NCBI GenBank assembly: GCA_938049225.1
Contig: CALICM010000045.1
Coordinates: 33,114 to 97,113 of the forward strand
DNA length: 64,000 nucleotides
Direction of reading: 5' to 3'
Source of the DNA: an uncultured Rhodobacteraceae bacterium
GTDB taxonomy: Bacteria; Pseudomonadota; Alphaproteobacteria; Rhodobacterales; Rhodobacteraceae
Shown here: one piece after another, positions 4,725 through 44,373 of the stretch
Layout: the number at the start of each line of letters is the position of its first letter
Position numbering within the stretch: the stretch's first letter is position 1
The notes under the pieces: generated by a model
What the model was told of the DNA's origin: nothing
Databases searched by the model: none
Seen by the model: the letters and a program-made list of their open reading frames with translations, nothing else
Translations under genes and position numbers: made by a program

Positions 4725-4727
4725 CGT

Positions 4728-7151: not shown

Positions 7152-7162
7152 ACCTCGACAGT

Positions 7163-7188
7163 CGCGTCCCCGGGCTTAAGGGGGCGCG
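7163..7188 (+). other. Intercistronic GC-rich stem-loop after the binding-protein gene
   Basis: CGCGTCCCC / GGGGGCGCG gives a 9-bp stem (one G-U) with an 8-nt loop. No U tract follows, so it is not a classical terminator. Confidence 0.45.
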
Positions 7189-7210
7189 GCCCAACAAATG
7201 GAATAGACCC

Positions 7211-9533: not shown

Positions 9534-10375
9534 CCTATCGTCGTTCCCTCTGGAATTTGCCCTGCCAGGCGTTCGACCAACGCCGCGGGGGCCGCCACAC
9601 CGCCGAAATGCCCATCCCGCGTCCGATCACACAATCGGATCGCCTGGTTCTGGAAATATCCGGCCTCCCGGTAGCCCGCAAAACCCGCATCCAGCATTTG
9701 CCCCGCGCGCTGTGCCAAAGGGAAGGCCGCGCCATGGGCGACGGCCCACTCAAAATCCAAACCTGTTGTTTGCAGCATCAGGTAGAGCGCCAAAAACTCG
9801 TTCGTGGCGAATTCGGTGTAGTTCATTAACTCGTCAAAGACGATCACATCGCCCGGGCGCAAATAGGGTGCAAGGGATTGCAGTACTGTATGCGCCGCAG
9901 AGAAAATATCGCAATCAATATGGATCAGCGCGATCCGAGGGCGCTTGCCTTGCCATTGCGCGACGAACGGCGGCACCGTCTCGGCGAAATACCCCGGCTG
10001 CAGCGTGACGTTCCCAGGCACTTCGGGCAGTGCGGCGACGGAGAAATCCTGGGTCCAATCCGTGCGGCCATCCTCGGGGAAGCCTTGGAAACTGTCGAAG
10101 CCGTGGATCTGTGCCTGGGGTCGTCGCTGTGCCAAATGGCGCAGACTGTTGCCTTGAAACACCCCGAACTCCAGGATGATGCCGTCAGGCGCCGACGATT
10201 GTGCCAATGCCGCATCCAACACCGCTTTCCAAGGCTTGCCGGTCTTGCCGCGCCGTCCCGACCAAGGCCAACGGCGCGGCAGGGGTGTCTGCGCTTGCGC
10301 AAAGCTGTCATGCGCGGCACACAGGAAAGCGGCATAGTCGGCCACGACGCGTTGGTGATCTGCAGCTTGGATCAT
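9530..10375 (-). CDS. Class I SAM-dependent methyltransferase (TylF/MycF-like fold)
   Basis: Motif I-like ILEFGVFQGNS, and IALIHIDCDIFSAAHTVL ... GDVIVFDE, typical of the Methyltransf_24/TylF type. Confidence 0.6.
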   Translation of the reverse strand: MIQAADHQRVVADYAAFLCAAHDSFAQAQTPLPRRWPWSGRRGKTGKPWKAVLDAALAQSSAPDGIILEFGVFQGNSLRHLAQRRPQAQIHGFDSFQGFPEDGRTDWTQDFSVAALPEVPGNVTLQPGYFAETVPPFVAQWQGKRPRIALIHIDCDIFSAAHTVLQSLAPYLRPGDVIVFDELMNYTEFATNEFLALYLMLQTTGLDFEWAVAHGAAFPLAQRAGQMLDAGFAGYREAGYFQNQAIRLCDRTRDGHFGGVAAPAALVERLAGQIPEGTTIG

Positions 10376-13192: not shown

Positions 13193-13282
13193 GGCCTCTC
13201 TCCTTGTCTCTCGCGGCGCGCGGCTGGACCTGCGCCTTTGGTTGCATGGCACCCTGTCCGGCTAAGGCCTGGGTGGCGGATA

Positions 13283-13357
13283 TGGTGGGCGTAACTGGGA
13301 TTGAACCAGTGACCCCTTCGATGTCAACGAAGTGCTCTCCCGCTGAGCTATACGCCC
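13283..13357 (-). tRNA. tRNA-Val (anticodon GAC)
   Basis: Hand-folded cloverleaf: acceptor GGGCGTA/TACGCCC, anticodon stem CTTCG/CGAAG with loop TTGACAT, T-arm ACTGG-TTCAATC-CCAGT, encoded CCA. Confidence 0.95.
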
Positions 13358-13398
13358 GAAACACGCCGCGCGAGGCCATAACCTCGCGTGAGCCGCCC

Positions 13399-13426
13399 GT
13401 ATAAAACGTTGTGTTCGAGGGTTCAA
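13399..13426 (-). promoter_or_regulatory. Possible sigma70-type promoter for tRNA-Val
   Basis: TTGAAC-16 nt-TTATAC on the minus strand, about 40 nt upstream of the tRNA 5' end. Confidence 0.3.
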
Positions 13427-13447
13427 GACCTTTTGCCCTAGGGTGCG

Positions 13448-14344
13448 TTGCGCTACATTGTCAGCGGAGGGACGGAGCATGCGACCGTGACTAAGGCCTA
13501 TTCGATCTATCATCCGACGGAATGGACATCGCCTGCGGTGTTCAGTTCACCCCATTCCGGATCGCGCTATCCGGCTGATTTTTTGGCCACGGCGGCGCTG
13601 GATGCCATGACCATTCGGTCGTCCGAAGACGCCTTCGTGGATGACCTCTTTTCGTTTGCTCCGCAGCATGGCGCGCCTCTGATCGCAGCCCATTTGCCCA
13701 GGGCCTATGTTGATCTGAACCGTGCGCCCGACGAATTGGATCCTGCCCTGATCGCCGGGGCGCAAAGGCATGGGGCCAATCCGCGGGTCTCGGCGGGTCT
13801 GGGTGTCATTCCCCGTGTGGTGGCCGAGGGGCGACCGATTCGCTCTGGTAAAATCTCGCAGCGCGAGGCACTCAAACGTTTACGTGTCGCCTATCACCCT
13901 TATCACGATGAGCTTGAGTCTCTGCTGGCCCGGCAACGCAATGCTTTTGGGACTGCCGTTTTGTTCGATTGCCATTCGATGCCGCATGATGCTTTGGCCT
14001 CGGCCCCCCGTGTGCGGGGGAAAAGACCTGATATTATCCTCGGCGACCGTTTTGGCGCCGCTTGCGCGCGCTGGGTGATCGATGCTGCGACCTGTCTGTT
14101 CACCGACGCCGGCTTTGTGGTCGCACGCAATGCACCCTTTGCTGGCGGCTATATCACCCAACACTACGGCCGCCCGTCGCGCGGCGTTCATGCCCTGCAG
14201 ATCGAGGTGGATCGCCGTCTTTATATGGACGAACGGGCGATGACGCGCCGCCCCGATTTCGCTGACATTGCGCAACGGCTTGAGCCAGTGATCGCCGGTT
14301 TGGCGCATTTGGGCGGTGCGGCGATGCCAATGGCCGCAGAATAA
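13448..14344 (+). CDS. N-formylglutamate amidohydrolase family protein
   Basis: FGase-family features (FSSPHSGSRYP, YVDLNR, FDCHSMP). Start uncertain: TTG at 13448 or GTG at 13487. Confidence 0.8.
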   Translation: MRYIVSGGTEHATVTKAYSIYHPTEWTSPAVFSSPHSGSRYPADFLATAALDAMTIRSSEDAFVDDLFSFAPQHGAPLIAAHLPRAYVDLNRAPDELDPALIAGAQRHGANPRVSAGLGVIPRVVAEGRPIRSGKISQREALKRLRVAYHPYHDELESLLARQRNAFGTAVLFDCHSMPHDALASAPRVRGKRPDIILGDRFGAACARWVIDAATCLFTDAGFVVARNAPFAGGYITQHYGRPSRGVHALQIEVDRRLYMDERAMTRRPDFADIAQRLEPVIAGLAHLGGAAMPMAAE

Positions 14345-14367
14345 CGGCTGCGTCACGCCTCCACCCC

Positions 14368-14397
14368 AAAAAAAAGGGTCGCGACACGTCGCGACCC
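14368..14397 (-). terminator. Rho-independent terminator (minus strand)
   Basis: GGGTCGCGA-CGTG-TCGCGACCC gives a 9-bp GC stem, followed by T8 on the minus strand. Confidence 0.8.
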
Positions 14398-14447
14398 AAG
14401 TCTAGGGAGGAAACGCCCGGAAGGGCGTATGATGCAGCGCATCAATA
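14368..14447 (-). ncRNA. Candidate trans-acting sRNA (about 80 nt) with a CCUCCC single-stranded seed
   Basis: Minus strand: TTGACT-16 nt-TAAATA promoter (14454..14481). Then hairpins TGATGC/GCATCA and ACGCCC-TTCC-GGGCGT, the unpaired stretch UUCCUCCCUAGACUU, then the terminator. 5' end is estimated only. Confidence 0.4.
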
Positions 14448-14638
14448 AGTTAGTATTTATGCCGCGCCGCAACATAGTCAATGCGACATGCGGATAACCG
14501 CCTAGCTTACCTAACGTCATGCCTATGAAATGGGCGCGCCCGAGAGGATGCCTATTTTTTGGTCGAAATTGGTTTAAGCAAGGCTCTTGCCCCAACTTGG
14601 GCTGCCCTCGGTGGCATTTGACGCCGCAAGCGCGCGGG

Positions 14639-15892
14639 TTAACTCAAAGCCCGTCCTTTGACGATCGCCTCAGCCCCAAACCGCTCCCGAATGATGTCCG
14701 TCGCACGTTCGGCCTCGGTCCGGCGGGCGGCATTTGGGTCCAGAAGGTCCGTGGTGAGATCGGCATGGGAGCCGGGGGTCAAGCGCCCCAATCCGACACC
14801 GATCAAGCGGAAAGGCCCTTCGCCCAGGGCCTTTGTGAGAAGCGGACTTGCGGTCCTGTGCAGCACATCGGCCAACTGGGTGGGCTGTTCCAGGGTCATA
14901 CTACGGGTCAGCAATCGGTGATCGGCGCGCTTTAATTTCAAAGTGATAACTTGCCCGGCCAGATCCTTGGCTTTTGCGCGGGCCGACACCTTTTCGGCCA
15001 GCCGCCAAAGATGGCCGTCCAACAGGTCTGGGTCGGTGGTGTCCTCGCGAAACGTCGTCTCGTGCGAGATCGACTTCATCTTTGATCTGCTCGAGACCTG
15101 GCGCGCGTCTTGTCCCCAAGCCAGCCGCCAGATGTGGTCGCCCATCGCGCCATAGCGATCCGCCATAGCCTTGCGGTCGCGGCGGCGGACATCGGCGATG
15201 GTGCGGATCCCGTCGCGCGCCAGGGTTTGGCGGGCGGCCTGGCCGACGCCCCAGATCACACTGACGGATTGGCGTGCCAGGAAATCCAGCGCCTCGGCCT
15301 GGCCGATCACCGAGAATCCCCGGGGTTTCTCCAGGTCGCTGGCGATTTTGGCCAGGAATTTGTTGTGCGACAGGCCCACCGACGCGGTGACGCCCAACTC
15401 AGCCTCAATCCGGGCGGTCAGGCGGGCCATCAGGATTGCGGGGGCAGCCCCGTGCAGGCGCTCGGTCCCGGTCAGATCGAGGAAGGCCTCGTCGAGAGAG
15501 AGGGGCTCGATGATTGGGGTCAGATCCTCCATCAAGCTGCGGATCTGGCGGGAAACTTGGACGTATTTCTCCATATTTGGGCGGACCACGGCAGCGTCGG
15601 GGCAAAGGGCCAGAGCCTTGAACATGGGCATGGCCGAGCGAACGCCGCGGATCCGGGCGATATAGCAAGCGGTCGAGACAACGCCCCGTCGGCCGCCGCC
15701 GATGATCACAGGTCGATCTGCCAGACTTGGATCGTCGCGTTTCTCGACCGTGGCATAAAAGGCGTCACAATCGATGTGGGCGATGGAAAGTTGCGTTAGC
15801 TCGGCATGGGCCAGCGTTCGCGGCGAGCCACAGGCGGGACAACGGCCTGGTGCTTGGCCAAGGTGGAGGCAATCGCGGCAAAGGATCTGCAT
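14639..15892 (-). CDS. dinB: DNA polymerase IV with N-terminal CxxC...CxxC zinc-ribbon-like extension
   Basis: Y-family polymerase motifs (IAHIDCDAFYATVEKRDDP, SLDEAFLDLTG). ATG at 15892 (MQILCRDC...) preferred over the ORF-track start at 15931. Confidence 0.9.
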   Translation of the reverse strand: MQILCRDCLHLGQAPGRCPACGSPRTLAHAELTQLSIAHIDCDAFYATVEKRDDPSLADRPVIIGGGRRGVVSTACYIARIRGVRSAMPMFKALALCPDAAVVRPNMEKYVQVSRQIRSLMEDLTPIIEPLSLDEAFLDLTGTERLHGAAPAILMARLTARIEAELGVTASVGLSHNKFLAKIASDLEKPRGFSVIGQAEALDFLARQSVSVIWGVGQAARQTLARDGIRTIADVRRRDRKAMADRYGAMGDHIWRLAWGQDARQVSSRSKMKSISHETTFREDTTDPDLLDGHLWRLAEKVSARAKAKDLAGQVITLKLKRADHRLLTRSMTLEQPTQLADVLHRTASPLLTKALGEGPFRLIGVGLGRLTPGSHADLTTDLLDPNAARRTEAERATDIIRERFGAEAIVKGRALS

Positions 15893-31522: not shown

Positions 31523-34249
31523 TTATGGGCTTCGCTCCGAAGGGTCGGGCGCAGCCAGTCCTTTAAGTTCATAGACTAAATCCAAAGCTTCGCGGGGGGT
31601 GAGCGTGTCTGGCATAACCGCTTGTAAGCGTTTCTCCGCCGGACCGGGCCCGTTGGGGGCTGCCGTCGCCACAGGGGTTGCACTGAACAGCGGCAGGTCA
31701 TCAATCATGGCCTTTGCCTTACCCCCTTGCGCGCGCTCGCCTTCCTCCAAAGCATCCAGGATCGTTCGCGCCCGGGCGATCACCGCCTCAGGAAGGCCCG
31801 CCAGCCGCGCCACTTGCACCCCGTAGGATCGATCCGCAGCGCCGTCCCGCACCTCATGCAGGAAGATCACCTCGCCCTCCCATTCGCGCACGGCAACTGT
31901 GGCGTTGTGCAGGCCTGACAGCGCGCCCGCCAGCGCGGTCAATTCGTGATAATGGGTCGCAAACAGGGCCCGGCATTGGTTCACGTCATGCAGATGTTCC
32001 AAGGTGGCCCAGGCGATGGACAGACCGTCATAGGTCGCGGTGCCCCGGCCGATCTCGTCCAGGATCACCAGGGCATTTCGGCCCGCCTGGTTCAGGATGG
32101 CTGCTGTTTCGACCATTTCGACCATAAAGGTCGACCGGCCCCGGGCTAGGTCGTCCGCCGCGCCGACGCGACTGAACAACTGGTCGACCACACCGATATG
32201 GGCCGCAGCCGCAGGCACGAAGCTGCCCGATTGAGCCAGCAGCGCGATCAGCGCGTTTTGCCTGAGAAAGGTGGACTTCCCCGCCATATTCGGCCCGGTC
32301 AGCAGCCAAATCGGATGTGCGTCTTCCGTGTCGGCGCTGAGTGTGCAGTCATTGGGGATAAAGCCCGTGTCCCCGGCGCGTTCCAAAGCGGCCTCGACCA
32401 CTGGATGGCGCCCGGCTTGGATATCGAACGTCCGGCTGCTGTCGATGCGCGGCCGGGTCCAGCTGCGCGCGCAAGCCAGGTCGGCGAGGGCTGCCTGCAG
32501 ATCCAATTCCGCCAAAGCCTGTGCTGTGGCGGCCAAGGGGGCAGCACTGGCCAACACTTCGTCGACCAAGGTCTCGAAGATCTCCTTTTCCAACTCAAGC
32601 GCCCGTGCGCCTGCGTTCAGAATACGGGTTTCCAGGTCGGACAACTCGACGGTCGTGAAACGCACCTGATTGGCGGTGGTTTGGCGATGAATAAAGGTCT
32701 CGCTGAGCGGTTCCGCCATCATCTTGGACGCATGCGAAGCTGGGGTTTCGACGAAATACCCCAAAACATTGTTGTGCTTCACTTTCAGTGACGAGATCCC
32801 CGAAGCTTCGGCATAGGTCTTTTGCAATCCCGCCACCACGGATCGGCTTTGATCCCGTAGTTTGCGGGTTTGATCCAACGGGCCGCTATAGCCCGGCGCT
32901 ACCACGCCGCCATCGCGGGTCAGCAGGGGCGGTTCCTCGGCCAGCGCTTGCTGAAGAAGGGTCGTCAGCACATCGTGCCCGGTCAGTGCTTGGACCGCGT
33001 CGTCCAGAAGCTGGGGCAGATCCTTGCCCGTCAGCATGTCTGCCAATGCTTTCGCCTGTATCAAACCGGCGCGCAGCGCGGCCAGATCGCGGGGCCCACC
33101 GCGCCCCAGGCCGATCCTGGACAACGCGCGCTCCATATCCGGTACCTTGCGCAGAGCAGCGCGGGTCGTCTCGCGCAGGTGGCTGTGATGGGCAAAGGTG
33201 CTGATCGCGTCCAGGCGATTGGTGATCTGGTCGATATCGGTCGAGGGGCTGGTGATCCGCGCTTCCAACAGGCGTGCCCCTCCCCCGGTGACCGTGCGAT
33301 CGATCATGGACAACAGCGAGCCCGCGCGGCCGCCATCAAGGGCGCGGATCAATTCCAAATTGCGCCGCGTGGCGGCATCGATATGCATCGCACCCCCGGC
33401 GCGTTCAACCGTTGGGGGCTGCAACAGCGCCATTTGGCCCCGCTGCGTCAGGTCGAGATAGGCCAGCGCCGCCCCAAGTGCCCCCAGTTGTGGCCGGGCG
33501 AGTACGCCAAAGGCATCCGGGCTATCGACCCCATATTGCGCCGCGATCCGTTGCCCGCCGCTGGTGCTGTCAAAGCTTTGTGCCGGGCGGGGGGTCACGG
33601 TCACGCCCATCTCCTCGATCTGGGCGCGCAACGCCTCTGTATCTTCCTCGCTGACCAGCACCTCCCTGGGCGCGACGCGGGCCAGCAGTGGGCCGAGGGT
33701 CGCCAAAGTGGCGGACGTCACGGTGACCTCGCCCGTCGAGATATCGATCCAAGCGAACCCCGCCTCCTCGCGCACCATGCAAAAGGCGGCGAGATAGTTG
33801 TGCGACCGGGCCTGCAGCAGACTGTCTTCGGTCAATGTACCGGGGGTGACCAGACGGACGACATCGCGTTTGACCACCGCTTTATAGCCGCGTTTCTTGG
33901 CTTCGGCCGGGCTTTCCAACTGCTCGCAGATCGCGACGCGAAAGCCCTTGCGGATCAGGGTAAGCAGATAGCCCTCGGCCGCGTGATGCGGCACGCCGCA
34001 CATGGCGATGTCTTGATCCAAATGCTTGCCGCGCTTTGTAAGCGCGATGTCCAGGGCGGCCGAGGCGGCCTGGGCATCCTCGAAAAACAACTCATAAAAG
34101 TCACCCATACGGTAGAACAAAAGCGCGTCGGGATATCTGGCCTTAATGTCCAGATACTGCGCCATCATCGGCGTCGCCTCGCCGGTCTTTGTCACACGCA
34201 CGGTCCCTTGGGTTGTCCAGGTTTGCGCCACACTAGCGAGGGGCGGCAA
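31523..34249 (-). CDS. mutS: DNA mismatch repair protein MutS
   Basis: TPMMAQYLDIKARYPDALLFYRMGDFYELFF; Walker A GPNMAGKST. The true start may be internal (GTG 34201/34195 or ATG 34168). Confidence 0.97.
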   Translation of the reverse strand: MPPLASVAQTWTTQGTVRVTKTGEATPMMAQYLDIKARYPDALLFYRMGDFYELFFEDAQAASAALDIALTKRGKHLDQDIAMCGVPHHAAEGYLLTLIRKGFRVAICEQLESPAEAKKRGYKAVVKRDVVRLVTPGTLTEDSLLQARSHNYLAAFCMVREEAGFAWIDISTGEVTVTSATLATLGPLLARVAPREVLVSEEDTEALRAQIEEMGVTVTPRPAQSFDSTSGGQRIAAQYGVDSPDAFGVLARPQLGALGAALAYLDLTQRGQMALLQPPTVERAGGAMHIDAATRRNLELIRALDGGRAGSLLSMIDRTVTGGGARLLEARITSPSTDIDQITNRLDAISTFAHHSHLRETTRAALRKVPDMERALSRIGLGRGGPRDLAALRAGLIQAKALADMLTGKDLPQLLDDAVQALTGHDVLTTLLQQALAEEPPLLTRDGGVVAPGYSGPLDQTRKLRDQSRSVVAGLQKTYAEASGISSLKVKHNNVLGYFVETPASHASKMMAEPLSETFIHRQTTANQVRFTTVELSDLETRILNAGARALELEKEIFETLVDEVLASAAPLAATAQALAELDLQAALADLACARSWTRPRIDSSRTFDIQAGRHPVVEAALERAGDTGFIPNDCTLSADTEDAHPIWLLTGPNMAGKSTFLRQNALIALLAQSGSFVPAAAAHIGVVDQLFSRVGAADDLARGRSTFMVEMVETAAILNQAGRNALVILDEIGRGTATYDGLSIAWATLEHLHDVNQCRALFATHYHELTALAGALSGLHNATVAVREWEGEVIFLHEVRDGAADRSYGVQVARLAGLPEAVIARARTILDALEEGERAQGGKAKAMIDDLPLFSATPVATAAPNGPGPAEKRLQAVMPDTLTPREALDLVYELKGLAAPDPSERSP

Positions 34250-34564: not shown

Positions 34565-36652
34565 TCATTTCTGTTTTTCGCATCGCGCGATCAGCCAGGC
34601 TCGCAAGGTGGGGGCTTCATCGGCTTTGGTTTTGAAATCCGCCGCCTGTTCGAGAAGGGTGCGCATTGCTTTGCCGTCCTTGCCCAAGGACTTCGCGGGC
34701 CAATGGGGTTTGTGGGCTTCCCAGGCTGTCAGATATCCGTCTGCCCAGATTGAAAAGAGGACAGGGTCTGTCGGAAAGAGTGCTTTGGATGGTGCGCCAT
34801 CGCGCAGCAGGGAAAGACGGCTGTGGTAGGCAAGGACGATCAGGTCGAGACTCTTTTGCAGATCTTCTTCGGAGGCCACGTCTTCAGCCACGACATTGAG
34901 GATCGTGACAATCCATTCGGAGGGCTTGATGAACTTGGGCGCGGTGCAGAGACCTGTGAGAAAGCCTTCCATCCAGGGCAGGGTGATCCGGGCGGGGCTC
35001 AGGAGGCGGTCGAGAGCCTTCTGTTCTTTTGGGCCGAAAGTAGCCACCTGGGCATGAGTTCCTGGCGCCAGTTGCTCTTCTGTGACTTCGAAGCCATCAG
35101 ATGGCATGGGGGAGCTGTCTTGATTGATCCAGGCCTCAAAGCTCATGCTGTGCACGAACTGCATGATGGGTGTCTTCTTCAGATCGCGGCCCTCGGCCAT
35201 GGCCTGTGCTACAGCGACAAACTCAGGCGCGGCCGGATCATTCGCGGCTATCAGCAAGGCGGCGTTGCGGGCAAAGACCATGGTCCAGAAGGCGCGGCGG
35301 GTCTCCAGATGCTGCCAGAGCTTGCGGTCCATCGAATTGCGGGTCATGCCGCTTTCGATCGCGTCTGAAGAGGCGTCGCTGTCTTCGAACCAGCTGTCCG
35401 AGATCGCATAATGATCGGGCCAGTGCCCACTTGCCACGATCAGACTGCCGCGCGAACGGACAGAGAGGTTTGCGACCTCGCCCTCGGGATCAGCCACAGA
35501 AACGATGTCGGCAACATCTGCTGCCTGTGGACGCAGTTCTCCAAGACCGGCGGTTTCGACAACATCCAAGAGACCCGCCGCTGGCATGGCGCCGTTCGAT
35601 TGCCCATCGGCAAGCGCCCAGGCCAGAGCGGTGAAAGCATAGTCCTCGGTCACCTCCACCGCAGCCGCCTGTTGGGCGATCTGCCCGATCATCTGGCGTT
35701 GCTCAGTGGCGCTGTTGCAGGGGAGAGTAAAGGCGTCCTTGACGCCAAAACCTTGTTTAAGCAGCACCACGGCCAACGCGCGGCGGCTGCCGGATTGAAT
35801 GGCTATAGAGATGCTCTGAGCACCGCTGCCATCGACCATAGAGGATACGACACGGTGGATTTTGGGTTTCGCGCTCTTGGTCGGGACCGGCGTTCCGCTT
35901 ATGAGCGCAGCGCGGACAATCTCGTCAATGCCGCGCAGGATGTCCGGGTTCTGCACCCAGCTTCGGATCAGCGTCAGACGGGAAAGCAGGCTCTGCCGCA
36001 ATTCACCGGCCTCTTGGCGCAGAGAGAGGCCTGCCAGCGCACCTGCGCTCAGGGAAGCATCTGTCGCAAGCAACAGAGCCGCAGCGGCCTCACCGCAGAG
36101 TGGTTCTGCCCGCGTGGCCAGCTTGCGGATGAAGGCGAAGCGCGCTTCGGGCGGCAAGGTCGGCAGCATCTCGTCGAGAAGCGCAAGCATTGCCGAGACC
36201 GATTGTTCGCCGATATCATTGAAACCTTTGAAAATACCATCGAACATCTCATCGGGAATGTCCGGAATGCCGCCGGTATCCGCAAAAGCGCCCGGGTCCT
36301 CCGGAATGACCGCATGCGCGAGGGACGGCGGCGGGGCGAGGCCTGCGCGAGACCAAACGCTCGAAAGGGACAAGGCCGCTTTGGAGGTGAGAGCGGTGTC
36401 AAGCCGCGCCACCTCGTCGCGCATGGCGTCGAGGAAAGCGCGACCTTTGCGCTGAGCGTTCTCATCGGCCATGCGTGCTTCGTCCAGCGCGGCTGTTAGT
36501 AACTGCATCTCGCCATCCGAAAGAGGGTCTGTTTTGGCCGCACTGATCAGCGCAGCGCACATATCCGGTCGCGCAAAAAGCTCTTTGCCACACCGTCGCA
36601 AAACGTCCGAATGCCGCGAAGAAGACGTCGCCGCATCAACTGCCCTAACCAT
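34565..36652 (-). CDS. Large hypothetical protein (695 aa) with C-terminal UPF0149/YecA-N-like domain
   Basis: ATG at 36652 preferred over the 843-codon ORF-track extension. C-terminus reads WMEGFLTGLCTAPKFIKPSEWI ... IWADGYLTAWE. The N-terminal ~520 aa are Ala/Leu-rich and helical-looking, with no recognised motif. Confidence 0.7.
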   Translation of the reverse strand: MVRAVDAATSSSRHSDVLRRCGKELFARPDMCAALISAAKTDPLSDGEMQLLTAALDEARMADENAQRKGRAFLDAMRDEVARLDTALTSKAALSLSSVWSRAGLAPPPSLAHAVIPEDPGAFADTGGIPDIPDEMFDGIFKGFNDIGEQSVSAMLALLDEMLPTLPPEARFAFIRKLATRAEPLCGEAAAALLLATDASLSAGALAGLSLRQEAGELRQSLLSRLTLIRSWVQNPDILRGIDEIVRAALISGTPVPTKSAKPKIHRVVSSMVDGSGAQSISIAIQSGSRRALAVVLLKQGFGVKDAFTLPCNSATEQRQMIGQIAQQAAAVEVTEDYAFTALAWALADGQSNGAMPAAGLLDVVETAGLGELRPQAADVADIVSVADPEGEVANLSVRSRGSLIVASGHWPDHYAISDSWFEDSDASSDAIESGMTRNSMDRKLWQHLETRRAFWTMVFARNAALLIAANDPAAPEFVAVAQAMAEGRDLKKTPIMQFVHSMSFEAWINQDSSPMPSDGFEVTEEQLAPGTHAQVATFGPKEQKALDRLLSPARITLPWMEGFLTGLCTAPKFIKPSEWIVTILNVVAEDVASEEDLQKSLDLIVLAYHSRLSLLRDGAPSKALFPTDPVLFSIWADGYLTAWEAHKPHWPAKSLGKDGKAMRTLLEQAADFKTKADEAPTLRAWLIARCEKQK

Positions 36653-36750
36653 GTCCGCAATGTACGAATCCACCCCGACCCCCCGTCTATTGCCGTCCTT
36701 GCAAAACAGAATTCGACGGCTTCGCCAAGCCAAAACCATGATCTGGATCT

Positions 36751-37370
36751 TCAGGAGCCCGTAACCTCTTCGATCACATCGCGAATGCGCTCCCGTTCTG
36801 CTTTCGGGGACGCCAGTTGGATCACCGTCAAACGCCTCTCTTTGAGCAGTGCTTTGGTCTCTTCCTCTGCCTTTTGCCACGCGGAAAGGTGAGGGGCGTG
36901 GATGCAGGCGTTCGGACACTTCGCCAACTGGCAAAGCCCGGTCTGCGGTTTGGTCTGGTCGGCGGTGGTCTTGAGGCAGAGGGCTGATGCGGGGTCGAAG
37001 AAACAGCCCGCAAGAATGCCAATATGAAGCGTCCGCGCCAAAGTGTAGCCAGAGACAGCAGCGATCTTTGGCGTGCGCAACGCCGTGAAAGCGCACTACC
37101 CGGCAAAATAGGCACTCTCGTACATTGATGTGTAATCCTGCACGTTCAATTCGGCGATATCCGCTCCTGCAGCGAATGCGCTTTCATGCCGGTAAGGGCG
37201 ATGCATCCGACATTGGCTTCAGTTTCATAGGACAAGGTTCAATCGAGCATCTCTTCCATTATTTGCGTGTTCAGCGCATTCAACGCCTTGGGCCGATTGA
37301 ACCGATTGGTTACAACCCTAACTGTCTGGCTGACGTCGATTGTTTGGTATGGTCTTCTGTCTTTCGTCAC
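36751..37370 (-). pseudogene. Enoyl-CoA hydratase/isomerase (crotonase) family pseudogene
   Basis: Reads (V)TKDRRPYQTIDVSQTVRVVTNRFNRPKALNALNTQIMEEMLD, then TGA at 37241..37239. Continues TLSYETEANVGCIALTG, a frameshift near 37182, then SAFAAGADIAELN...YFAG, then TAG at 37098..37096 where a Trp is expected. Continues ...LRTPKIAAVSGYTLA, which runs into the ATG-less ORF 36751..37080. Confidence 0.65.
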
Positions 37371-37371
37371 T

Positions 37372-38688
37372 TCAACTGTCCCAGATTGCGCCAAAAGCGG
37401 GAATACCTTCGCTTTCCATGTCGTAGATGACTTGTCGGGTCAGTTTTGGGTTAGATATCACGATCACGGCCTCCGCCCCGCTTTGTCGCACCGCTTGCAG
37501 CGCCAAAGCCGACAGGTTTGGCTTGCCTAGTTTGTCCGTGTCCCAGATGATTGAATCCTCCGAATGGGCAAGGATCTCTTCAACCAACGCCCTGCCATAG
37601 GTTTTGTGCGGCGAGCGTGTCGACCAGATCAACTTACAGGGGACATCGAAGGTCAGTAGATGCGGCAGGATTGGCCCGATACCACTGCCGGTCCCCACGT
37701 AGACGACCTTTTTGAATAGCGTTTCAATCCGAGCCACGCCTGACGTCGTGATGCCCTTGACCCAAACATGACTTGGCGGATTGTCGATGAAACGCCCCGT
37801 CCAATCACCCGCGCGGCTGATTACCAGCCGATAGCCATCCTTGCCAGGCGTCGGGATGTTTGCAAAGGAATGCCATTCAAAAAGTGGATTAAGGCTCACG
37901 GCGTTGGATGATCCCGCAAAGGGCGTTTCGCCGTAGTCAAACTGCACCACCGCGACGTGATTTGATGGTGTCTCAACGGTGATCGGAACTTTGCGTAAGG
38001 TCATCCACGGCGAGGCAATTGACAGAGTGATCAAGCAAAGCAGCCAAAACGCGAGGCTTGAGGTCAGCGGTATGCCCGCATCCCGAACCATTGCCGCATT
38101 CTGCGCCCAGAAGAGTGCAAGCAGTGTCCAACCGGCGAACCGATGGACATGTTCAAACTGATTATGGAACGCTTGTCGGATTGGGCCTATCGCGGTGACC
38201 ACCATGGGAACCATCAAGGCAACCATAATAGCGCTCAAGACCAGCGTAAGAGACGACGCGCTGCCGACCCCGTTGAGCGTATTGGTCCCGAGCGCAAACA
38301 GCAGAAAACCAAACCAGATTGACCCGGCGACTGCCCCACCGGCGTGAAGTCCACCGAAGTGAAACACCTTGCCTGCACCCCAGCGAATCCAGAGGGGCCA
38401 GCTTGTTGGGATCCGCGTCGCGATCCAAAAGAGAAGGTTCACGACACGTTGCTGCCGGATCAAGATCGCCACTGTAAAGTTGAAGAGCGCGATTTGGGCA
38501 ATTGCCGCCACGTCGAACACGTCCTCGGAAAACCAGATTTCATTGCTGATCCCATTGGCGAAGACCCATAGGTTGGCCAAAGCCACAATCGCCGCCAAAC
38601 GGCGGTATTCGATAAACCAAGGATGCCGGGTGAGCCGTCGCACATTGAATCGCCGCGGGCTATGTGCACCGATCGTTTCGAGCGTCAC
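37372..38688 (-). CDS. Polytopic membrane flavoprotein, ferric-reductase/NOX-like TM domain plus FNR-like FAD/NAD(P) module
   Basis: About 6-7 TM helices with His-containing segments (FHFGGLHAGG, HNQFEHVHRF). EWHSFA resembles the HPF(T/S) FAD motif; VGTGSGIGP resembles GxGxxP. ATGA overlap with the upstream adenylation gene. Confidence 0.7.
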   Translation of the reverse strand: MTLETIGAHSPRRFNVRRLTRHPWFIEYRRLAAIVALANLWVFANGISNEIWFSEDVFDVAAIAQIALFNFTVAILIRQQRVVNLLFWIATRIPTSWPLWIRWGAGKVFHFGGLHAGGAVAGSIWFGFLLFALGTNTLNGVGSASSLTLVLSAIMVALMVPMVVTAIGPIRQAFHNQFEHVHRFAGWTLLALFWAQNAAMVRDAGIPLTSSLAFWLLCLITLSIASPWMTLRKVPITVETPSNHVAVVQFDYGETPFAGSSNAVSLNPLFEWHSFANIPTPGKDGYRLVISRAGDWTGRFIDNPPSHVWVKGITTSGVARIETLFKKVVYVGTGSGIGPILPHLLTFDVPCKLIWSTRSPHKTYGRALVEEILAHSEDSIIWDTDKLGKPNLSALALQAVRQSGAEAVIVISNPKLTRQVIYDMESEGIPAFGAIWDS

Positions 38689-40395
38689 TCTGCTGCCTCA
38701 ACGACCGTGTTTGCGAGCGCTTCGGCTGCAAGTGTCAAGAGAAGGCGTTTATCCAACTTACCGCGTGCGGTCTTTGGCAATTGATCCATGGGTAGGATAA
38801 CCGCGGGACTGCAATAGTAAGGTAGGCTTTGTTTGACACTGGTTTGTGCGGCCATGGGATCGACAGATGCCGGGCTTACAAATGCGACGAGCGTGCGGTC
38901 ATCAAATTTGAGAGTGACCGCTTGGTCGCAGCCCTCGGTTGTCTCCAAGGCACGCGAGATGCCGTCAAGTTCGACGCGGAACCCACGGATCTTGACCAAA
39001 TCATCCACGCGACCGTAGTGCAAAAGCTCGCCCGCTTCTGTCCAAGCCCCAAGATCGCGCGTGTTGAACATCATATGGCCTGGGCGGAAGGGGTCAGGAC
39101 GGTAACGATCGGCGGTCAAGCTGGGATTTGCGAGATATCCAGCCGTGACACAGTCGCCGCCGGCCCACATCACGCCACGTTCACCGAAGGGGAGCGGCTT
39201 TAGGTTCCCGTCTAGGATGTAGACGGTGTTGTTAGGCGTCGGTTTTCCAATCGTCAGATCTGACTTGTTAGGCCAATGCCGCACCGCGGTATTGATGATC
39301 GTTGTCTCCGTCGGGCCGCAGGAATTGTAGAAATTACAAAAGCTGCCCCATTTGTCAGCAAGCGGTCGCGGGCATGGCTCCCCTGCGACCGCAACGGTCT
39401 TCACCTGACGGCAAGCGTCAGCATCCAGCGCACCCAGGATTGACGGCGTGGCGATCAATATATCAACTGCACTCGCGGTTTCCTGAATGTCTGATCCGCG
39501 AATGACCAGCGTTGCTCCATTGGACAAGGCGCCAAGGGTTTCCCAGGCGGCCATGTCAAAGGCGATCGAGAGGATTTGTCCAACCCGCAGACCAGGACCC
39601 ATCCCCAGATTGCCGGGGGTGGTTAAGAGAATATTACATAGGTTTCTGTGCGTGACTTGCACCCCGTTTGGAACACCCGTTGTCCCGGATGTGAAGAGCA
39701 CCATACACAAGTCATGTGGTTGCAATGGGCTTTCCACTTTAAGGCGCGGGGTGGAAGTGTCGGCTAAAGCGTTTCGCCTTTACCTTGAGACATGTCTCGT
39801 TACCTAACGCGTTGAAATCTATGATTTCAGGCAGCGTTAGGTGATTCAAGTTTAAGGCGAAACGCTATAGGGTATCTTCAATCAGCAATATTTGCTGGGG
39901 CGCACCTAAAGGTATTTGATCTGCGCAGTCTGCGATCGACAAAATGACCTTGGCCCTGGTCACTGCAGAAATGTGACGCAGGCTGTCTTCGGATGCGACA
40001 CCGATGTGCTGTGGCACGTAGTACGCCCCCAATTTCAGACAGGCGAAAATGCCAACGACCATGGGAATTGAACGCCGGAGGAAAAGGCCTACCGCATCAC
40101 CGTGCCTTACGCCAAGTTCTGCCAGTTGAAAGGCAAGGCGCTCAGCAGCTGCATTAAGATCGCCATAGCTGATCCAATCCGATCCGCATTCAACCGCACG
40201 TGTTTGTGGTGCCACATCCGCAAAATGCTCAAATCCTGCGAGGATCGTAAAAAAGGCAGGCTCTGCCTGAGGGCCAAATCCGAATTCGAAGAACCAATCG
40301 TCGAGGTCCAGGCCAGATGGATCGGGTCTCCAACCCGGCGGCATGGCGATAGCGGCTGTTTGTGATTGGTTTGGTGTAAGGTGAACTGATGACAT
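38685..40395 (-). pseudogene. Stand-alone NRPS-type adenylation enzyme (no carrier domain), interrupted by a 101-bp MITE
   Basis: N-fragment 40395..39865 (ISYGDLN, LKLGAYYVPQ) ends in TAG. C-fragment 39737..38685 carries FTSGTTGVPNG, FDMAAWE, NSCGPTETT, GRVDDLVKIRGFRVEL, PKTARGKLDKR. Removing 103 nt restores one 535-codon frame. Confidence 0.8.
39767..39867. mobile_element. Miniature inverted-repeat element (101 bp) with TA target-site duplication
   Basis: Ends AAGCGTTTCGCCTT ... AAGGCGAAACGCTA share a 13-nt perfect inverted core. Internal palindrome CCTAACGC ... GCGTTAGG. TA at 39765..39766 and 39868..39869. Confidence 0.7.
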
Positions 40396-40780
40396 TTTTC
40401 TCTCCCCATTGGCGCAACCGTCAACTTTGCGAATTGACGTGAAGCGGGACCGCTCTGGGTTGCTACCTAAGTGGAGGATACCCACGAACTGATATGAGTA
40501 GGGATTACGTGGACGCCGAGGGCACGGCGGAGTCTTTACGTAGATGCTACGTAGACTACCTCAACAGAGAATACACTAAGGATCTAATTTTAAAGTATTT
40601 TTCTGGTGGATGCGATGGAGAAGAGAGAGAAGCGGGGCAAACCGAGTTACCCATCACGACTGTGTGAGACGCGGCTAACGCAAATGAAGACGACACAATT
40701 GCAGTGTAAGAGGTGCTTCAGTCTAACCTCGCCCCCGGGGCGCCTGGTCTTCTCGGATTCCGCTCTAGGTGTGATTACTT

Positions 40781-42013
40781 GAATTAGTCTCGATGTGATC
40801 TGACACCGCCCCCTCTCAGCAAGCTGAAACGGGGGCGGCACATCTCTTGAACGAGATGATGGTTGTCCGTTTTGATGGTGGTGCAAACCAAGACCATCGA
40901 AACAAGGAAACCACAATGTTGAATACTACTGATAAGATCATCAAACACAAAACCGGCTTGCTGAACCTGGCCGAGGAATTAGGTAACGTGTCCAAAGCGT
41001 GCCAAGTCATGGGCATGTCGCGCGATACGTTCTATCGCTATAAATCGGCGGTCGAGGACGGCGGCGTTGAGGCGCTTTTTGAACGCACAAGGCGCAAACC
41101 CAATCTGGCGAACCGGGTGGATCATGCGACTGAAGATGCCGTCATCAAATCCGCCACCGACTTCCCGGCTTATGGCCAAGCCCGCACGTCCAACGAGCTG
41201 CGCAAACTGGGTGTGTTTGTCTCGCCGTCTGGGGTGCGATCAATCTGGCTGCGTCATGATCTGGCGAACTTCAAGGCGCGGCTGAAGGCGCTGGAAGCCT
41301 TGGTTGCCGAGGACGGCGGTATCCTGACCGAGGCGCAGGTGCAGGCATTGGAAAAGAAGAAGCATGACGACGAGGCCTGCGGCGAGATCGAGACCGCGCA
41401 TCCCGGCTATCTGGGGTCACAGGACACGTTCTATGTCGGCACCCTGAAGGGCGTCGGTCGTGTCTACCAGCAGACCTACATTGATACGTATTCCAAAGTG
41501 GCCCATGCCAAACTCTATACCACCAAGACGCCGATCACAGCCGCTGATCTGCTCAATGACAGGGTGCTTCCATTCCATGAGGAACACGATCTGCCGGTGC
41601 TGCGGATCATGACCGACCGGGGCACGGAATATTGCGGGCGTGTCGACAAGCACGACTTCCAGCTCTTCCTGGCGATCAACGATATCGATCATACGAAGAC
41701 CAAGGTGAAATCGCCCCAGACGAACGGGATTTGCGAGCGGTTCCACAAGACGATCCTGCAGGAGTTCTATCAGGTCGCGTTCCGCAAAAACCTTTACGAA
41801 AGCATCAACGCGCTGCAAGCGGATCTGGACGAATGGCTGCACCACTACAACTTTGAGCGCACGCATCAGGGCAAAATGTGTTGCGGCAGAACACCCATCG
41901 AAACTATGATCGACGGGAAAGAAATCTGGCAGGAAAAGTTCCTGAACTGAACTTCACCTGACAGATGCCGCCAGAAAAACGGACAACTGTCAGATCACAT
42001 CTGAACCACTACA
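40781..42013 (+). mobile_element. IS481-family-like insertion sequence (1233 bp) flanked by an 8-bp direct repeat GATTACTT
   Basis: Inverted core GATGTGATCTGACA at 40792..40805 and 41988..42001. GATTACTT at 40773..40780 and 42014..42021. Single DDE transposase ORF. Confidence 0.75.
40916..41950 (+). CDS. IS481-family-type DDE transposase (HTH plus integrase core)
   Basis: ATG at 40916. HTH (VSKACQVMGMSRDTFYRYK); rve-like core (GYLGSQDTFYVG ... IMTDRGTEYCG ... SPQTNGICERFHKT). Confidence 0.88.
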   Translation: MLNTTDKIIKHKTGLLNLAEELGNVSKACQVMGMSRDTFYRYKSAVEDGGVEALFERTRRKPNLANRVDHATEDAVIKSATDFPAYGQARTSNELRKLGVFVSPSGVRSIWLRHDLANFKARLKALEALVAEDGGILTEAQVQALEKKKHDDEACGEIETAHPGYLGSQDTFYVGTLKGVGRVYQQTYIDTYSKVAHAKLYTTKTPITAADLLNDRVLPFHEEHDLPVLRIMTDRGTEYCGRVDKHDFQLFLAINDIDHTKTKVKSPQTNGICERFHKTILQEFYQVAFRKNLYESINALQADLDEWLHHYNFERTHQGKMCCGRTPIETMIDGKEIWQEKFLN

Positions 42014-42015
42014 GA

Positions 42016-44202
42016 TTACTTCCTCCGCCGCTTCACCTTCCCTCCGCGCTGTCCGGCCCGCCCAGCTGTACTTCGCCCCTCGGCCTTTTTCGCGTCCTCG
42101 ACGGCTTGCTCCACCGCCGATTGCCGGGCCAGGGGATCGTCGGCTATTAGCAGGTCGACGGATTCCAGCCGTTTGACCTCGTCCCGCAGGCGGGCGGCCT
42201 CTTCGAATTCCAGGTTCTCGGCGGCCTTCATCATATCCTTGCGCAACGCGTCCAGATGCGCCTGCAAGTTCGCGCCCACCATCGGTTTGTCGACCTTGGC
42301 CGTCACCCGGTTCATATCGACATCGCCCTGATAGAGGCCTGCCAGCACGTCCTCGACGTTCTTCTTGACCGTCTCGGGCGTGATGCCGTGCGCCTCGTTA
42401 TAGGCGTGCTGCTTTTCGCGCCGCCGGTTGGTCTCGCGGATTGCGCGTTCCATCGAACCGGTCACGCGGTCGGCGTACATGATTACCTTTCCGTCCGCGT
42501 TGCGCGCGGCGCGGCCGATGGTCTGCACCAGCGAGGTTTCCGAGCGCAGAAACCCCTCCTTATCCGCATCCAGGATCGCGACCAGCCCGCATTCGGGAAT
42601 GTCCAATCCCTCGCGCAGCAGGTTGATGCCGACCAGTACGTCGAAGGCCCCCAGGCGCAGGTCCCGCAGGATCTCGATCCGCTCCAGCGTGTCGATGTCC
42701 GAGTGCATATAGCGCACGCGGATGCCCTGTTCGTGCAGGTATTCGGTCAAATCCTCGGCCATGCGTTTGGTCAGCACGGTGCACAGCACGCGATAGCCTG
42801 CTTGCGCCACGCGGCGGATCTCGTCCAGCAGGTCGTCGACCTGGGTCTCGACGGGGCGGATTTCAACCGGCGGGTCCAACAGGCCGGTAGGGCGGATAAC
42901 CTGTTCGGCGAAGACGCCGCCGGATTGCTCCAACTCCCAGGCCGAGGGCGTGGCCGAGACAAAGACCGATTGCGGGCGCATGGCGTCCCACTCCTCGAAT
43001 TTGAGGGGGCGGTTGTCCATGCAGGATGGCAGCCGGAAGCCATGCTCGGCCAGGGTGAACTTGCGCCGGTAGTCGCCCTTGTACATGCCGCCGATCTGCG
43101 GGACCGAGACGTGGCTTTCGTCGGCAAAGACGATGGCATTGTCGGGGATATATTCGAAAAGGGTCGGCGGCGGCTCGCCCGGGGCCCGGCCGGTCAGGTA
43201 GCGAGAGTAGTTTTCGATGCCGTTGCAGACGCCGGTCGCTTCGAGCATCTCAAGGTCGAAGTTGGTGCGTTGTTCCAGGCGCTGGGCTTCCAACAACTGC
43301 CCATCCTTTACAAGCTGGTCCAGGCGGACGGCCAACTCCGCTTTGATCCCCTTGATCGCCTGCTGCATCGTTGGGCGCGGGGTGACATAGTGCGAGTTGG
43401 CGTAGATGCGGGTCTTTTCCAGAGTGTCGGTTTTCTGGCCGGTCAGCGGGTCAAATTCGGTCAGGCTCTCTAGCTCCTCACCAAAGAACGACAGACGCCA
43501 GGCGCGATCCTCAAGGTGGGCGGGCCAGATCTCCAGACTGTCGCCCCGCACGCGAAAACTGCCGCGCTGGAACGCACTGTCGTTGCGCCGGTACTGCTGG
43601 GCGATCAGATCGGCCATCACCTTGCGCTGATCATAGTCGCGCCCGACGACCAGATCCTGGGTCATCGCGCCATAGGTCTCGACCGAGCCGATGCCGTAAA
43701 TGCATGATACCGAGGCGACAATGATCACGTCATCGCGTTCCAACAGCGCCCGGGTGGCCGAATGGCGCATCCGGTCGATCTGTTCGTTGATCTGTGATTC
43801 TTTCTCGATATAGGTGTCCGAGCGTGGAACATAGGCTTCGGGTTGGTAATAATCGTAATAGCTGACGAAATATTCTACCGCGTTGTCTGGGAAGAACCCC
43901 TTGAACTCACCATAAAGCTGCGCCGCCAGCGTCTTGTTTGGCGCCAGAATGATGGCTGGGCGCTGAGTCGTTTCGATAACTTTGGCCATTGTAAAGGTTT
44001 TGCCAGTGCCGGTGGCGCCCAGCAGGACTTGGTTCTGCTCGCCGCCGGTGATGCCCTCGACCAGTTCGGCGATGGCCGTGGGTTGGTCCCCCGCGGGCAG
44101 AAATTCGGTATTCATTACAATGCGTTTGCCACCATCCAGCTTATCGCGGGTGCGGGCTTGGGTGGGAATATTGGCGGGGCTGGCGGCGCTTTCTGTGGTC
44201 AT
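42016..44202 (-). CDS. uvrB: Excinuclease ABC subunit B
   Basis: [12 protein letters not shown] Walker A, helicase motifs, C-terminal UVR domain ([12 protein letters not shown]). ATG at 44202. Confidence 0.97.
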
Positions 44203-44373
44203 GACATATCCTTTGATGACCACAATGTGAGGGTTGCCGCTAGGACTTCAAGGTTAATAAAATGTTAAAACCTTAGGTTGCATTGAAAAAATAAAAAACA
44301 ACTATTTAGGCATTTAAGGGTTGTGTAACCCTACCGCCGAGCGCTAATTTGTTCTTGCAAGCAGCGACTACCC

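Follow-up and report, generated by a model that had tools for sequence, protein, structure and literature searches.

A decaying Rhodobacteraceae locus as a probable split-gene bacterial counterpart of the fungal TmpB/TmpL systems

Introduction

The fungal proteins TmpA, TmpB and TmpL are the closest described relatives of a three-gene locus analysed here, which lies in a 64,000-nucleotide stretch of DNA from an uncultured Rhodobacteraceae bacterium (GenBank assembly GCA_938049225.1, contig CALICM010000045.1, positions 33,114 to 97,113; hereafter the window) and comprises a nonribosomal peptide synthetase (NRPS)-type adenylation (A) gene, an open reading frame (ORF) for a membrane flavoprotein of 438 amino acids (aa) and the remnant of a crotonase (enoyl-CoA hydratase, ECH) gene. 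An earlier note, made from the sequence alone, had regarded the three genes as an unassigned module without known precedent; the fungal literature supplies one, as the set corresponds to a split form of TmpB, TmpL or ChNPS12 (PMC4804170, PMC2766074, PMC2823734). On balance, we favour reading the locus as a conserved bacterial operon in decay, one that corresponds in split-gene form to fungal TmpB/TmpL (ChNPS12) with a neighbouring enoyl-CoA hydratase gene, and we hold the identification as a TmpB/TmpL-type system itself with high confidence.

The original study of TmpA is said to date from 2006. It is cited as prior work in the 2009 report on TmpL of Alternaria brassicicola and Aspergillus fumigatus, a protein that comprises an AMP-binding domain, six transmembrane (TM) helices and a FAD/NAD(P) domain, in which thiolation (T) and condensation (C) domains are absent (PMC2766074). 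According to that report, the recombinant C-terminal domain binds flavin as judged by spectroscopy, TmpL is required for redox homeostasis, normal conidia and virulence, the mutant shows reactive oxygen species (ROS) and virulence phenotypes, and the protein was held to be confined to filamentous fungi (PMC2766074). In Aspergillus nidulans, TmpA, an oxidoreductase alone, acts with the adjacent ligase AfeA, and TmpB, an A domain joined to a TmpA-like part, constitutes a second conidiation-signal pathway; both proteins are localised at the plasma membrane and required for conidiation signals, several Aspergilli have a conserved gene for an enoyl-CoA hydratase beside tmpB, and the authors predict a hydrophobic amino-acid substrate (PMC4804170). 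In ChNPS12, one A domain precedes a ferric reductase transmembrane domain, and standalone A domains of bacteria fall within the same clade (PMC2823734). Systems of this kind are thus familiar from fungal genetics, and their bacterial A domains were noticed in 2010 without the partner gene; the literature that we searched contained no report on the split-gene bacterial operon and no biochemistry of TmpA, TmpB or TmpL published after 2016.

Results

A three-gene locus between mutS and uvrB

Between mutS (31523-34249) and uvrB (42016-44223), the minus strand carries in succession the A gene, the 438-aa ORF and the crotonase remnant, and the G+C content of 0.50-0.58 over 37000-41000 is lower than in mutS (0.59-0.67) and uvrB (0.61-0.65), as the earlier note had observed. 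The features of the locus are as follows.

38685..40395, minus strand: NRPS-type, carrier-less A gene, inactivated by one insertion (AMP-binding and TIGR01733 matches)
39764..39870, no strand: palindromic insert of 107 nucleotides (nt), an inverted repeat with 42-nt arms
37372..38688, minus strand: intact gene for the 438-aa TmpA-type membrane flavoprotein (ORF, homologues, AlphaFold2 model, Foldseek)
37999..38616, minus strand: predicted TM domain with six helices, aa ~25-230 (DSSP of the AlphaFold2 model, conservation)
37375..37995, minus strand: predicted FAD/NAD(P)H domain resembling ferredoxin-NADP reductase (FNR), aa ~232-438 (Foldseek, DUOX1 profile alignment, invariant residues)
37036..37370, minus strand: crotonase (enoyl-CoA hydratase) pseudogene remnant (tblastn with Shimia ECH, weak ECH_1 match)

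The stop codon of the A gene and the start codon of the flavoprotein ORF share 4 nt, both in the window and in the related locus of Shimia (L001). The overlap had been reported before as ATGA; it reads GTGA, with GTG as the start codon, and translational coupling of the second gene to the first through this overlap is well supported by the sequence.

Conservation of the operon across bacteria

When every GTDB species was scanned through one genome, at least 580 stretches with a relative of the flavoprotein emerged, of which the best 80 loci were analysed. Three intact loci, those of Shimia, Ruegeria atlantica and Roseibium, encode consecutively an AMP-binding protein of 535-541 aa, a protein of the Pfam family 03009_C of 437-438 aa and an ECH of 256-260 aa, with a divergent pair of DUF6502 and DUF5666-like genes upstream. 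In the first of these, from Shimia sp. R9_2 (L001), the A gene lies at 6397-8004. Among the loci that could be evaluated, an A homologue was found immediately upstream on the same strand in 74 of 74, the two genes being separate in all of them, and a canonical crotonase immediately downstream in 67 of 77. The earlier note had proposed such a survey and had named a chance juxtaposition as the outcome that would overturn its reading; intact triplets turned out to be co-conserved, and chance juxtaposition of the genes is excluded, since their order recurs in loci of different species. The operon occurs in Alpha-, Beta- and Gammaproteobacteria, Actinomycetes, Chloroflexota, Bacteroidota and Cyanobacteria (about seven phyla among the 80 loci), with carriers in the Rhodobacteraceae, Rhizobiaceae, Stappiaceae and Geminicoccaceae, in Halomonas, Pseudomonas, Aliikangiella, Arenicellales, Vibrionaceae and Ideonella, in Micromonospora, Nonomuraea, Microbispora and Streptosporangium, and in Chloroflexota, Saprospiraceae and one Pseudanabaenales cyanobacterium.

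Searches with AcpP and peptidyl carrier protein (PCP) sequences detected no carrier gene within 8 kb on each side in the 80 loci, and the GxDS motif is absent from the proteins of the module. Clustering of all ORFs of these loci likewise revealed no other conserved neighbours and no siderophore, iron-uptake or NRPS genes conserved nearby. These observations bear on the possibility that the A enzyme serves a distant NRPS or carrier in the manner of VibE or EntE, its linkage to the flavoprotein and the crotonase being regulatory or coincidental. Standalone A domains that act in trans are common, and a distant-NRPS role was proposed for the bacterial ones by Bushley and Turgeon (PMC2823734), but we consider this explanation highly improbable, given the adjacency in 74 of 74 loci across phyla with overlapping stop and start codons, the lack of conserved NRPS or carrier genes within the 8-kb flanks, and the physical fusion of A domain and flavoprotein in fungi and in the protein P0121.

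Fused counterparts in fungi

An exhaustive HMMER search of 1.8 billion cluster representatives with the flavoprotein returned 1119 clusters, the best of which included fusions of 1005-1202 aa in which a low-complexity linker joins an AMP-binding domain at the N-terminus to the flavoprotein domain at the C-terminus, all of them free of PP-binding matches. One fusion is annotated as 'nonribosomal peptide synthetase 12' (Mycena, P0139), and others come from Apiospora and Tricholomella. The window flavoprotein aligned with the Mycena NPS12 protein over aa 14-438 (phmmer E 4e-96) and showed 39% identity to the Apiospora protein P0145 (BLASTP E 1e-96), the C-termini reading ...GAIWDS and GPIFDS, while the A protein of Shimia and the A domain of Mycena NPS12 share 45% identity over 506 aa (E 7e-128). 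The window itself lacks the single-polypeptide architecture of TmpB/TmpL and carries two genes, resembling TmpA plus a separate ligase. Because an ECH gene adjoins tmpB in Aspergilli and the operon occurs in bacteria, the adenylation, flavoprotein and crotonase functions are linked in both kingdoms.

P0121 is a 1016-aa A-flavoprotein fusion with a short charged linker, encoded on a 6.6-kb Logan contig, and is the closest representative outside the 50% cluster of the window protein (54% identity). Its sequence is more like the bacterial than the fungal ones, and the fusion may thus exist outside fungi as well.

Fold and conserved sites of the membrane flavoprotein

More than 2300 homologues of the 438-aa protein were found. 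In a large protein database, the window protein and all 120 homologues listed carry the precomputed Pfam assignment PF26733 '03009_C', a label that we take to be derived from 'adenylate-forming reductase 03009'. Local scans of the protein against Pfam (E <= 0.01) and NCBIfam (E <= 1) gave no match at all, including Ferric_reduct, FAD_binding_8 and NAD_binding_6; the fungal P0139 has a sub-threshold FAD_binding_8 match (E 0.009). Of the profile searches suggested in the earlier note, those for the other two genes did produce matches, to AMP-binding and, weakly, to ECH_1.

The AlphaFold2 model, built on 26 orthologues (pLDDT 80.8, pTM 0.74), shows six long helices (DSSP: 28-48, 60-78, 99-138, 146-165, 175-204 and 212-229), after which come a beta-barrel and a Rossmann-like domain, so that the lower figure of the 6-7 TM helices previously estimated for this intact ORF is the one that the model bears out. 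Foldseek comparison with the PDB placed the NADPH oxidase (NOX) SpNOX first (8qt6, E 9e-12, TM-scores 0.56/0.61 over 419 columns), followed by DUOX1, NOX5 and NOX2, and these matches span nearly the entire model. For the C-terminal half, the matches were the dehydrogenase (DH) domain of SpNOX and FNR-family reductases (TM-scores 0.66-0.72, normalised to the target), including ferredoxin-NADP reductases, as well as siderophore-interacting proteins. As the search of a sequence profile against the PDB returned DUOX1 alone, at a sub-significant E of 0.12, the fold is set by the model and Foldseek. In the DUOX1 profile alignment, EWHSFA (aa 271-276) stands opposite EYHPFT, and GTGSGIGP, from VGTGSGIGP at aa 331-339, opposite GGGIGVTP, the FAD and NADPH motifs, and the protein ends with the aromatic W436 and an invariant D-S. 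The FNR-like C-terminal module that had been proposed from these two motifs is borne out by the Foldseek matches, and flavin binding by this domain is predicted from HSFA, GTGSGIGP, the C-terminal W/F and the FNR fold.

Conservation was evaluated over 77 full-length representatives of the family with a pairwise identity of at most 50%. In the TM domain, N39, N70, R78, R102, H115, W125, R171, H175, E179, H182, R183 and W228 are invariant. H115 is the lone invariant histidine of TM3 (H110 is present in 52% of the representatives), and TM5 begins with H175-x3-E179-x2-H182-R183, in which H175 and H182 are 7 residues apart. SpNOX ligates two hemes through H69/H83 on TM3 and H129/H142 on TM5 (PMC11564096). 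Across these representatives, no histidine lies at +13 or +14, and the bis-heme pattern of NOX and FRE proteins is accordingly absent, which makes electron transfer across the membrane unlikely. From the order of the helices, TM6 running on into the cytoplasmic domain, and the secondary structure, not from coordinates, we infer that H115, H175, E179 and H182 together with four arginines lie at or near the cytoplasmic face. Such a cluster would fit one inner heme or a non-heme metal, combined with a site that binds a polyanionic ligand, rather than a transmembrane electron wire.

Thus, the predicted model joins a six-TM ferric reductase domain (FRD) fold to an FNR-like dehydrogenase domain and supports a NOX/FNR-like membrane flavoprotein, which upholds the structural expectation of the earlier note that the protein is FNR-like; its term 'ferric reductase', taken strictly, is not supported and was overstated, as the heme histidine pairs and the corresponding profile matches are missing. 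The same evidence weighs on the idea of a genuine NOX or ferric reductase whose electrons cross the membrane to O2 or Fe(III), making ROS or acquiring iron, with the A enzyme and the crotonase producing a siderophore-like or regulatory ligand. NADPH oxidases are the best full-length structural matches and ROS are altered in fungal tmpL mutants (PMC2766074), yet we judge this scenario very unlikely, because the outer-heme ligands are missing, with only H115 (TM3) and H175/H182 (start of TM5) invariant, the Ferric_reduct, FAD_binding_8 and NAD_binding_6 models find no match, and siderophore or iron-uptake genes are not conserved nearby.

A TmpA-like variant of 607 aa with an N-terminal cyclic-nucleotide-binding domain (P0124) was observed at four loci (L086-L089, gene at 8001-9824), sometimes tandemly duplicated (second copy in L087 at 13276-15099). 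Integrase, Mu-transposase, Toprim and DUF2786 genes surround it, a mobile-island setting that recalls membrane effectors activated by nucleotides; no A or ECH gene stands near it at these loci, and it offers no clue to the chemistry.

The adenylation enzyme and its substrate

The A gene matched Pfam AMP-binding (E 3e-39 and 1e-20) and the NCBIfam amino acid adenylation domain TIGR01733 (E 2e-67), all core motifs quoted in the earlier note were found, and A2-A10 are retained. The solved relatives closest to the intact Shimia orthologue are the NRPS A domains of LgrA (5e-99) and GrsA (1amu, 3e-63). Pfam and NCBIfam scans revealed no T, C or reductase (R) domain and no PP-binding or Condensation match; the protein ends 23 aa past the catalytic lysine of A10, which is 19 aa past the quoted motif and not 17 as previously counted. 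With no carrier detected within 8 kb at any of the 80 loci, the earlier view of the first gene product as an NRPS-type adenylation enzyme without a thiolation partner is well supported by sequence comparison.

These data can be held against an adenylate-forming reductase, in which the FNR-like protein would reduce the activated carboxylate of an amino acid to an amino aldehyde or alcohol, in line with the annotation of fungal 'type IV adenylate-forming reductases'. A passage of PMC8070225 that cites Kalb 2014 describes type IV reductases as having a C-terminal FNR domain, the Pfam label 03009_C seems to go back to such an enzyme, and the 438-aa protein bears motifs for NAD(P)H and FAD. We nevertheless regard this reading as unlikely: a T domain or phosphopantetheine site is missing in both the split and the fused forms, the characterised carboxylate reductases all act on a carrier thioester through an R domain of the short-chain dehydrogenase/reductase (SDR) type, FNR-fold proteins are electron-transfer enzymes not known as acyl reductases, and no role would remain for the six conserved TM helices, for the invariant His/Glu/Arg cluster or for the conserved crotonase. 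No PP-binding, NAD_binding_4 or SDR match was obtained in the module, which therefore falls outside the A-T-R enzymes.

The specificity code, whose extraction had been suggested, was read from an alignment in which the window sequence was set beside 75 bacterial A proteins and five fusions (four fungal and P0121), anchored by a GrsA-PheA fragment; the indexing was validated in that the fragment returned the textbook code DAWTIAAICK. The window has the Stachelhaus code DMWIAASIIK, identical in 53 sequences, and most of the remaining codes follow DMWIAA[A/C/S]I[I/V]K, with a few differing at other positions. Among the fungal fusions, Mycena NPS12 has DMWIAACIVK and P0144 DMWIAASIVK. Asp235 and Lys517 are retained in the pocket, which argues for an amino-acid substrate, and the small residues at 299, 301 and 322, like the similarity to Phe codes, point to a side chain that is large and hydrophobic. 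The A enzyme probably activates one particular alpha-amino acid, probably a hydrophobic one, as its acyl-adenylate, and since the pocket is the same in bacteria and fungi, this substrate is probably shared from Vibrio to mushrooms.

A conserved motif (W/H)F..(F/Y)G(F/Q/R)GP was noticed ahead of the A domain (window ~40270-40300, aa ~33-42 of the A protein), outside the standard A-domain core motifs; it occupies the same position in L001 and in the fusions P0139 (fungal) and P0121.

The crotonase

In the intact orthologue, ECH_1 matched with E 3.5e-67, EchA8 of Mycobacterium tuberculosis with E 1.6e-87 and rat mitochondrial ECH with E 6e-72, and the GGGCE and QPE motifs that bear both catalytic glutamates are present. 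Intact copies of the third gene therefore are, with good support from sequence, canonical CoA-dependent short-chain enoyl-CoA hydratases, and it is this canonical crotonase that would point to an acyl-CoA (enoyl- or 3-hydroxyacyl-CoA) intermediate. In the window, as the earlier note had recognised, a decayed crotonase gene begins 1 nt beyond the stop codon of the flavoprotein, with a GTG at 37370. With Shimia ECH as the query, tblastn recovered one segment of residues 4-61 and, in another frame, one of residues 65-112, the remnant bearing two in-frame stops and a frameshift; past residue 112 of ~260, nothing aligns in the window, the C-terminal 150 aa being deleted.

Decay of the window copy and neighbouring elements

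The A gene is split into two ORFs, an N-terminal part in frame -2 that meets an in-frame TAG at 39865-39867 and a C-terminal part in frame -3 (39776-38685). The 107-nt palindrome brings in both the stop and the frameshift and is the sole lesion of the gene. Excision of 109 nt (the element and 2 nt) restores a single ORF without internal stops, which reads ...LLIEDTDTSTPRLKVESPLQPHDLCMVLFTSGTTG... and is collinear with the orthologues; such a reconstruction had been made before, at 535 aa, and the restored length is 533 aa. The Shimia A protein aligned with the window at 78% identity over aa 173-536 and at 48% over aa 33-197 (tblastn), and the C-terminal part is 82-83% identical to its nearest orthologues. 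A separate origin of the N-terminal part was considered and rejected, as an identity of 48-55% is not unusual for a region that varies between 46 and 66% in all orthologues.

The palindrome has terminal inverted repeats of ~17 bp, CTAWAGCGTTTCGCCTT. A 13-mer of the insert occurs 2 times against 0.14 expected, and an unrelated metagenome contig (L090) has, between two genes at ~8945-9043, a related element whose termini are the same, while a 25-mer of the insert had found no match in the first scan of metagenomes. A public short-read contig of the same sequence as the window (L085) ends within the element, and this break hints at a multi-copy repeat similar to a miniature inverted-repeat transposable element (MITE) or a repetitive extragenic palindrome (REP). 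The A gene is inactivated by this one small MITE/REP-like insertion, which is probably recent. Hence, the earlier statement that two of the three genes are dead stands, with the A gene split and the crotonase truncated, although the A gene is less decayed than was implied. With the A gene interrupted and the crotonase truncated and frameshifted, the pathway cannot operate from the window copy unless further copies exist elsewhere in the genome.

The flavoprotein is the only intact ORF of the operon in the window, and it gave no clear signal of relaxed selection, with 12 unique changes at columns conserved to >=92% against 0-16 in 25 orthologues. The DUF6502/DUF5666-like pair is absent: tblastn found no homologue of the DUF6502 or DUF5666 proteins of related loci in the window, and an insertion sequence (IS) occupies the position of the divergent pair in orthologous alphaproteobacterial loci.

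40792..42001, plus strand: IS with an HTH_29/rve transposase gene at 40847-41950 (Pfam matches, terminal inverted repeats)

The terminal inverted repeats of the IS are perfect over 14 bp (GATGTGATCTGACA / TGTCAGATCACATC), and the element ends 15 nt from the stop codon of uvrB. Rfam searches detected no riboswitch or other RNA in the window over 36500-42100 (E <= 1) or in eight intact loci (gathering threshold).

The DUF6502 pair was present in 50 of 69 loci, nearly all of them alphaproteobacterial. In L001 it spans 4493-6228 and is divergently transcribed; the DUF6502 protein (~280 aa) has a weak match to the winged helix of DprA, and its DUF5666-like partner (~295 aa) has a hydrophobic N-terminus that resembles a signal peptide, as judged by eye without a predictor. 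The two may represent a dedicated regulator/sensor pair. In Vibrionaceae, Arenicellales and Micromonospora (L071, L077-L079 and L081-L084), an OmpR-type response regulator near the operon takes the place of this pair, and in the Vibrionaceae and Arenicellales loci a sensor-kinase cluster lies beside it. Directly past the crotonase remnant, a 724-aa gene (34565-36739, minus strand) carries precomputed Y4lR_2nd, Y4lR_C, DUF7401 and UPF0149 matches. The ~300 nt between this gene and the ECH fragment (36740-37035) matched nothing tested, and this junction is the site where the 3' half of the ECH gene was lost.

Discussion

Sequence, model and synteny establish that the system unites three components inherited together: an amino-acid adenylase that has no carrier, a membrane protein of NOX fold and NAD(P)H/FAD type without an outer heme, and a canonical crotonase. 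A possible course of events is that the aminoacyl-adenylate, no carrier being involved, would pass to CoA or straight to the membrane partner, after which the flavoprotein, with electrons passing from NAD(P)H to FAD in its cytoplasmic FNR-like domain attached to the six TM helices, would perform a redox step on the substrate at the inner membrane face via the His/Glu site. As the outer-heme ligands are absent and the His-His-Glu-His/four-Arg cluster is invariant, the electrons probably go no further than one inner heme or a non-heme iron site. The crotonase would then hydrate or dehydrate the resulting enoyl- or 3-hydroxyacyl-CoA, giving a small diffusible product with a role in signalling or redox homeostasis, as the fungal genetics would suggest. 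We put forward this particular order of reactions as tentative and rather doubtful. The wider proposal, an ancient carrier-independent pathway common to bacteria and fungi in which a NOX-fold flavoenzyme with a new His3-Glu metal or single-heme site at the inner membrane face receives the aminoacyl-adenylate or its CoA ester straight from the A domain, followed by the crotonase and leading to a diffusible signalling or redox metabolite, is speculative and, in our estimate, somewhat unlikely as a whole. The idea of the earlier note that carboxylate activation and membrane redox chemistry yield a signalling metabolite agrees with what fungal geneticists have proposed (PMC4804170).

Several points weigh against this mechanism. 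The cofactor content of the TM domain is derived from conservation and a predicted model, and the crotonase, from which alone a CoA acceptor is deduced, is absent in 10 of the 77 loci and hence possibly accessory. NRPS A domains normally require a carrier. Moreover, the interpretation of the specificity code is weak, since it is anchored on a PheA fragment and the code is close to no characterised one. Among the fungal data, TmpL is localised to Woronin bodies and peroxisomes and not to the plasma membrane, and the passage on FNR-type 'type IV' adenylate-forming reductases labels them L-serine reductases (PMC8070225, citing Kalb 2014).

The fungal TmpA, TmpB and TmpL proteins have effects on sporulation signals, on the balance of ROS and on virulence in pathogens of plants and humans, and what these enzymes make is a long-standing question that now becomes approachable in bacteria, where one compact operon encodes A enzyme, flavoprotein and crotonase in at least 580 species representatives, including the tractable, culturable genera Ruegeria, Pseudomonas, Vibrio and Micromonospora and strains of the Phaeobacter group. 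That the A-domain pocket is the same in both kingdoms helps to make this question testable in bacterial hosts. Possibly new enzymology could be met both in a carrier-free NRPS adenylation enzyme and in a NOX-fold protein without a transmembrane heme wire; if true, the carrier-independent pathway would represent the long-sought class of TmpA/TmpB-type conidiation signals, with marine Rhodobacteraceae, Vibrionaceae and actinomycetes as producers. The window copy itself is a relic and is worth mainly as a record of operon decay, the value of the system lying in its wide distribution and cross-kingdom conservation.

Comparison with known systems places the operon at different distances from five of them. 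It recalls the start of beta-oxidation (FadD, FadE, crotonase) in combining adenylation, a flavin redox step and hydration, and its crotonase has an identity in the 55% range to housekeeping ECHs; this is an analogy only, as the A domain is of the NRPS type with an amino-group-binding Asp and the flavoprotein has an NAD(P)H-linked NOX fold, with no acyl-CoA dehydrogenase. With the A-T-R enzymes CAR, Lys2 and ATRR it shares an adenylation domain and an NAD(P)H-dependent redox module that act on a single substrate without building a peptide; those proteins, however, are soluble and work through a phosphopantetheinyl T domain with an R domain of the SDR type, whereas here a T domain is missing and the redox partner is an integral membrane protein of FNR/NOX fold. 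The NOX/FRD superfamily (SpNOX, NOX2, NOX5, DUOX1) has the same predicted fold, the HPFT-like (HSFA) and GxGxxP motifs and the C-terminal aromatic residue, and differs from the flavoprotein described here in its bis-heme histidine pairs, in place of which the H115/H175/E179/H182 and four-Arg cluster is found, and by the latter's obligatory adenylation partner. TmpA with AfeA represents the same oxidoreductase module paired genetically with a separate adenylate-forming enzyme, for which an extracellular signal was proposed (PMC4804170); AfeA, however, is a coumarate-ligase-like (4CL-like) acyl-CoA ligase and not an NRPS-type A enzyme, and its substrate presumably differs. The closest likeness is to TmpB (A. 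nidulans AN9129), TmpL and ChNPS12, which share an A domain with the same specificity code and no T or C domain, a six-TM and FAD/NAD(P) TmpA-like domain of 39-43% identity ending in ...G(A/P)I(W/F)DS, the N-terminal FG(F/Q/R)GP motif and a neighbouring enoyl-CoA hydratase gene. What separates them is that the fungal proteins are single polypeptides of ~1000 aa, whereas the bacterial system consists of two translationally coupled genes, in an operon flanked by DUF6502/DUF5666-like genes or two-component regulators.

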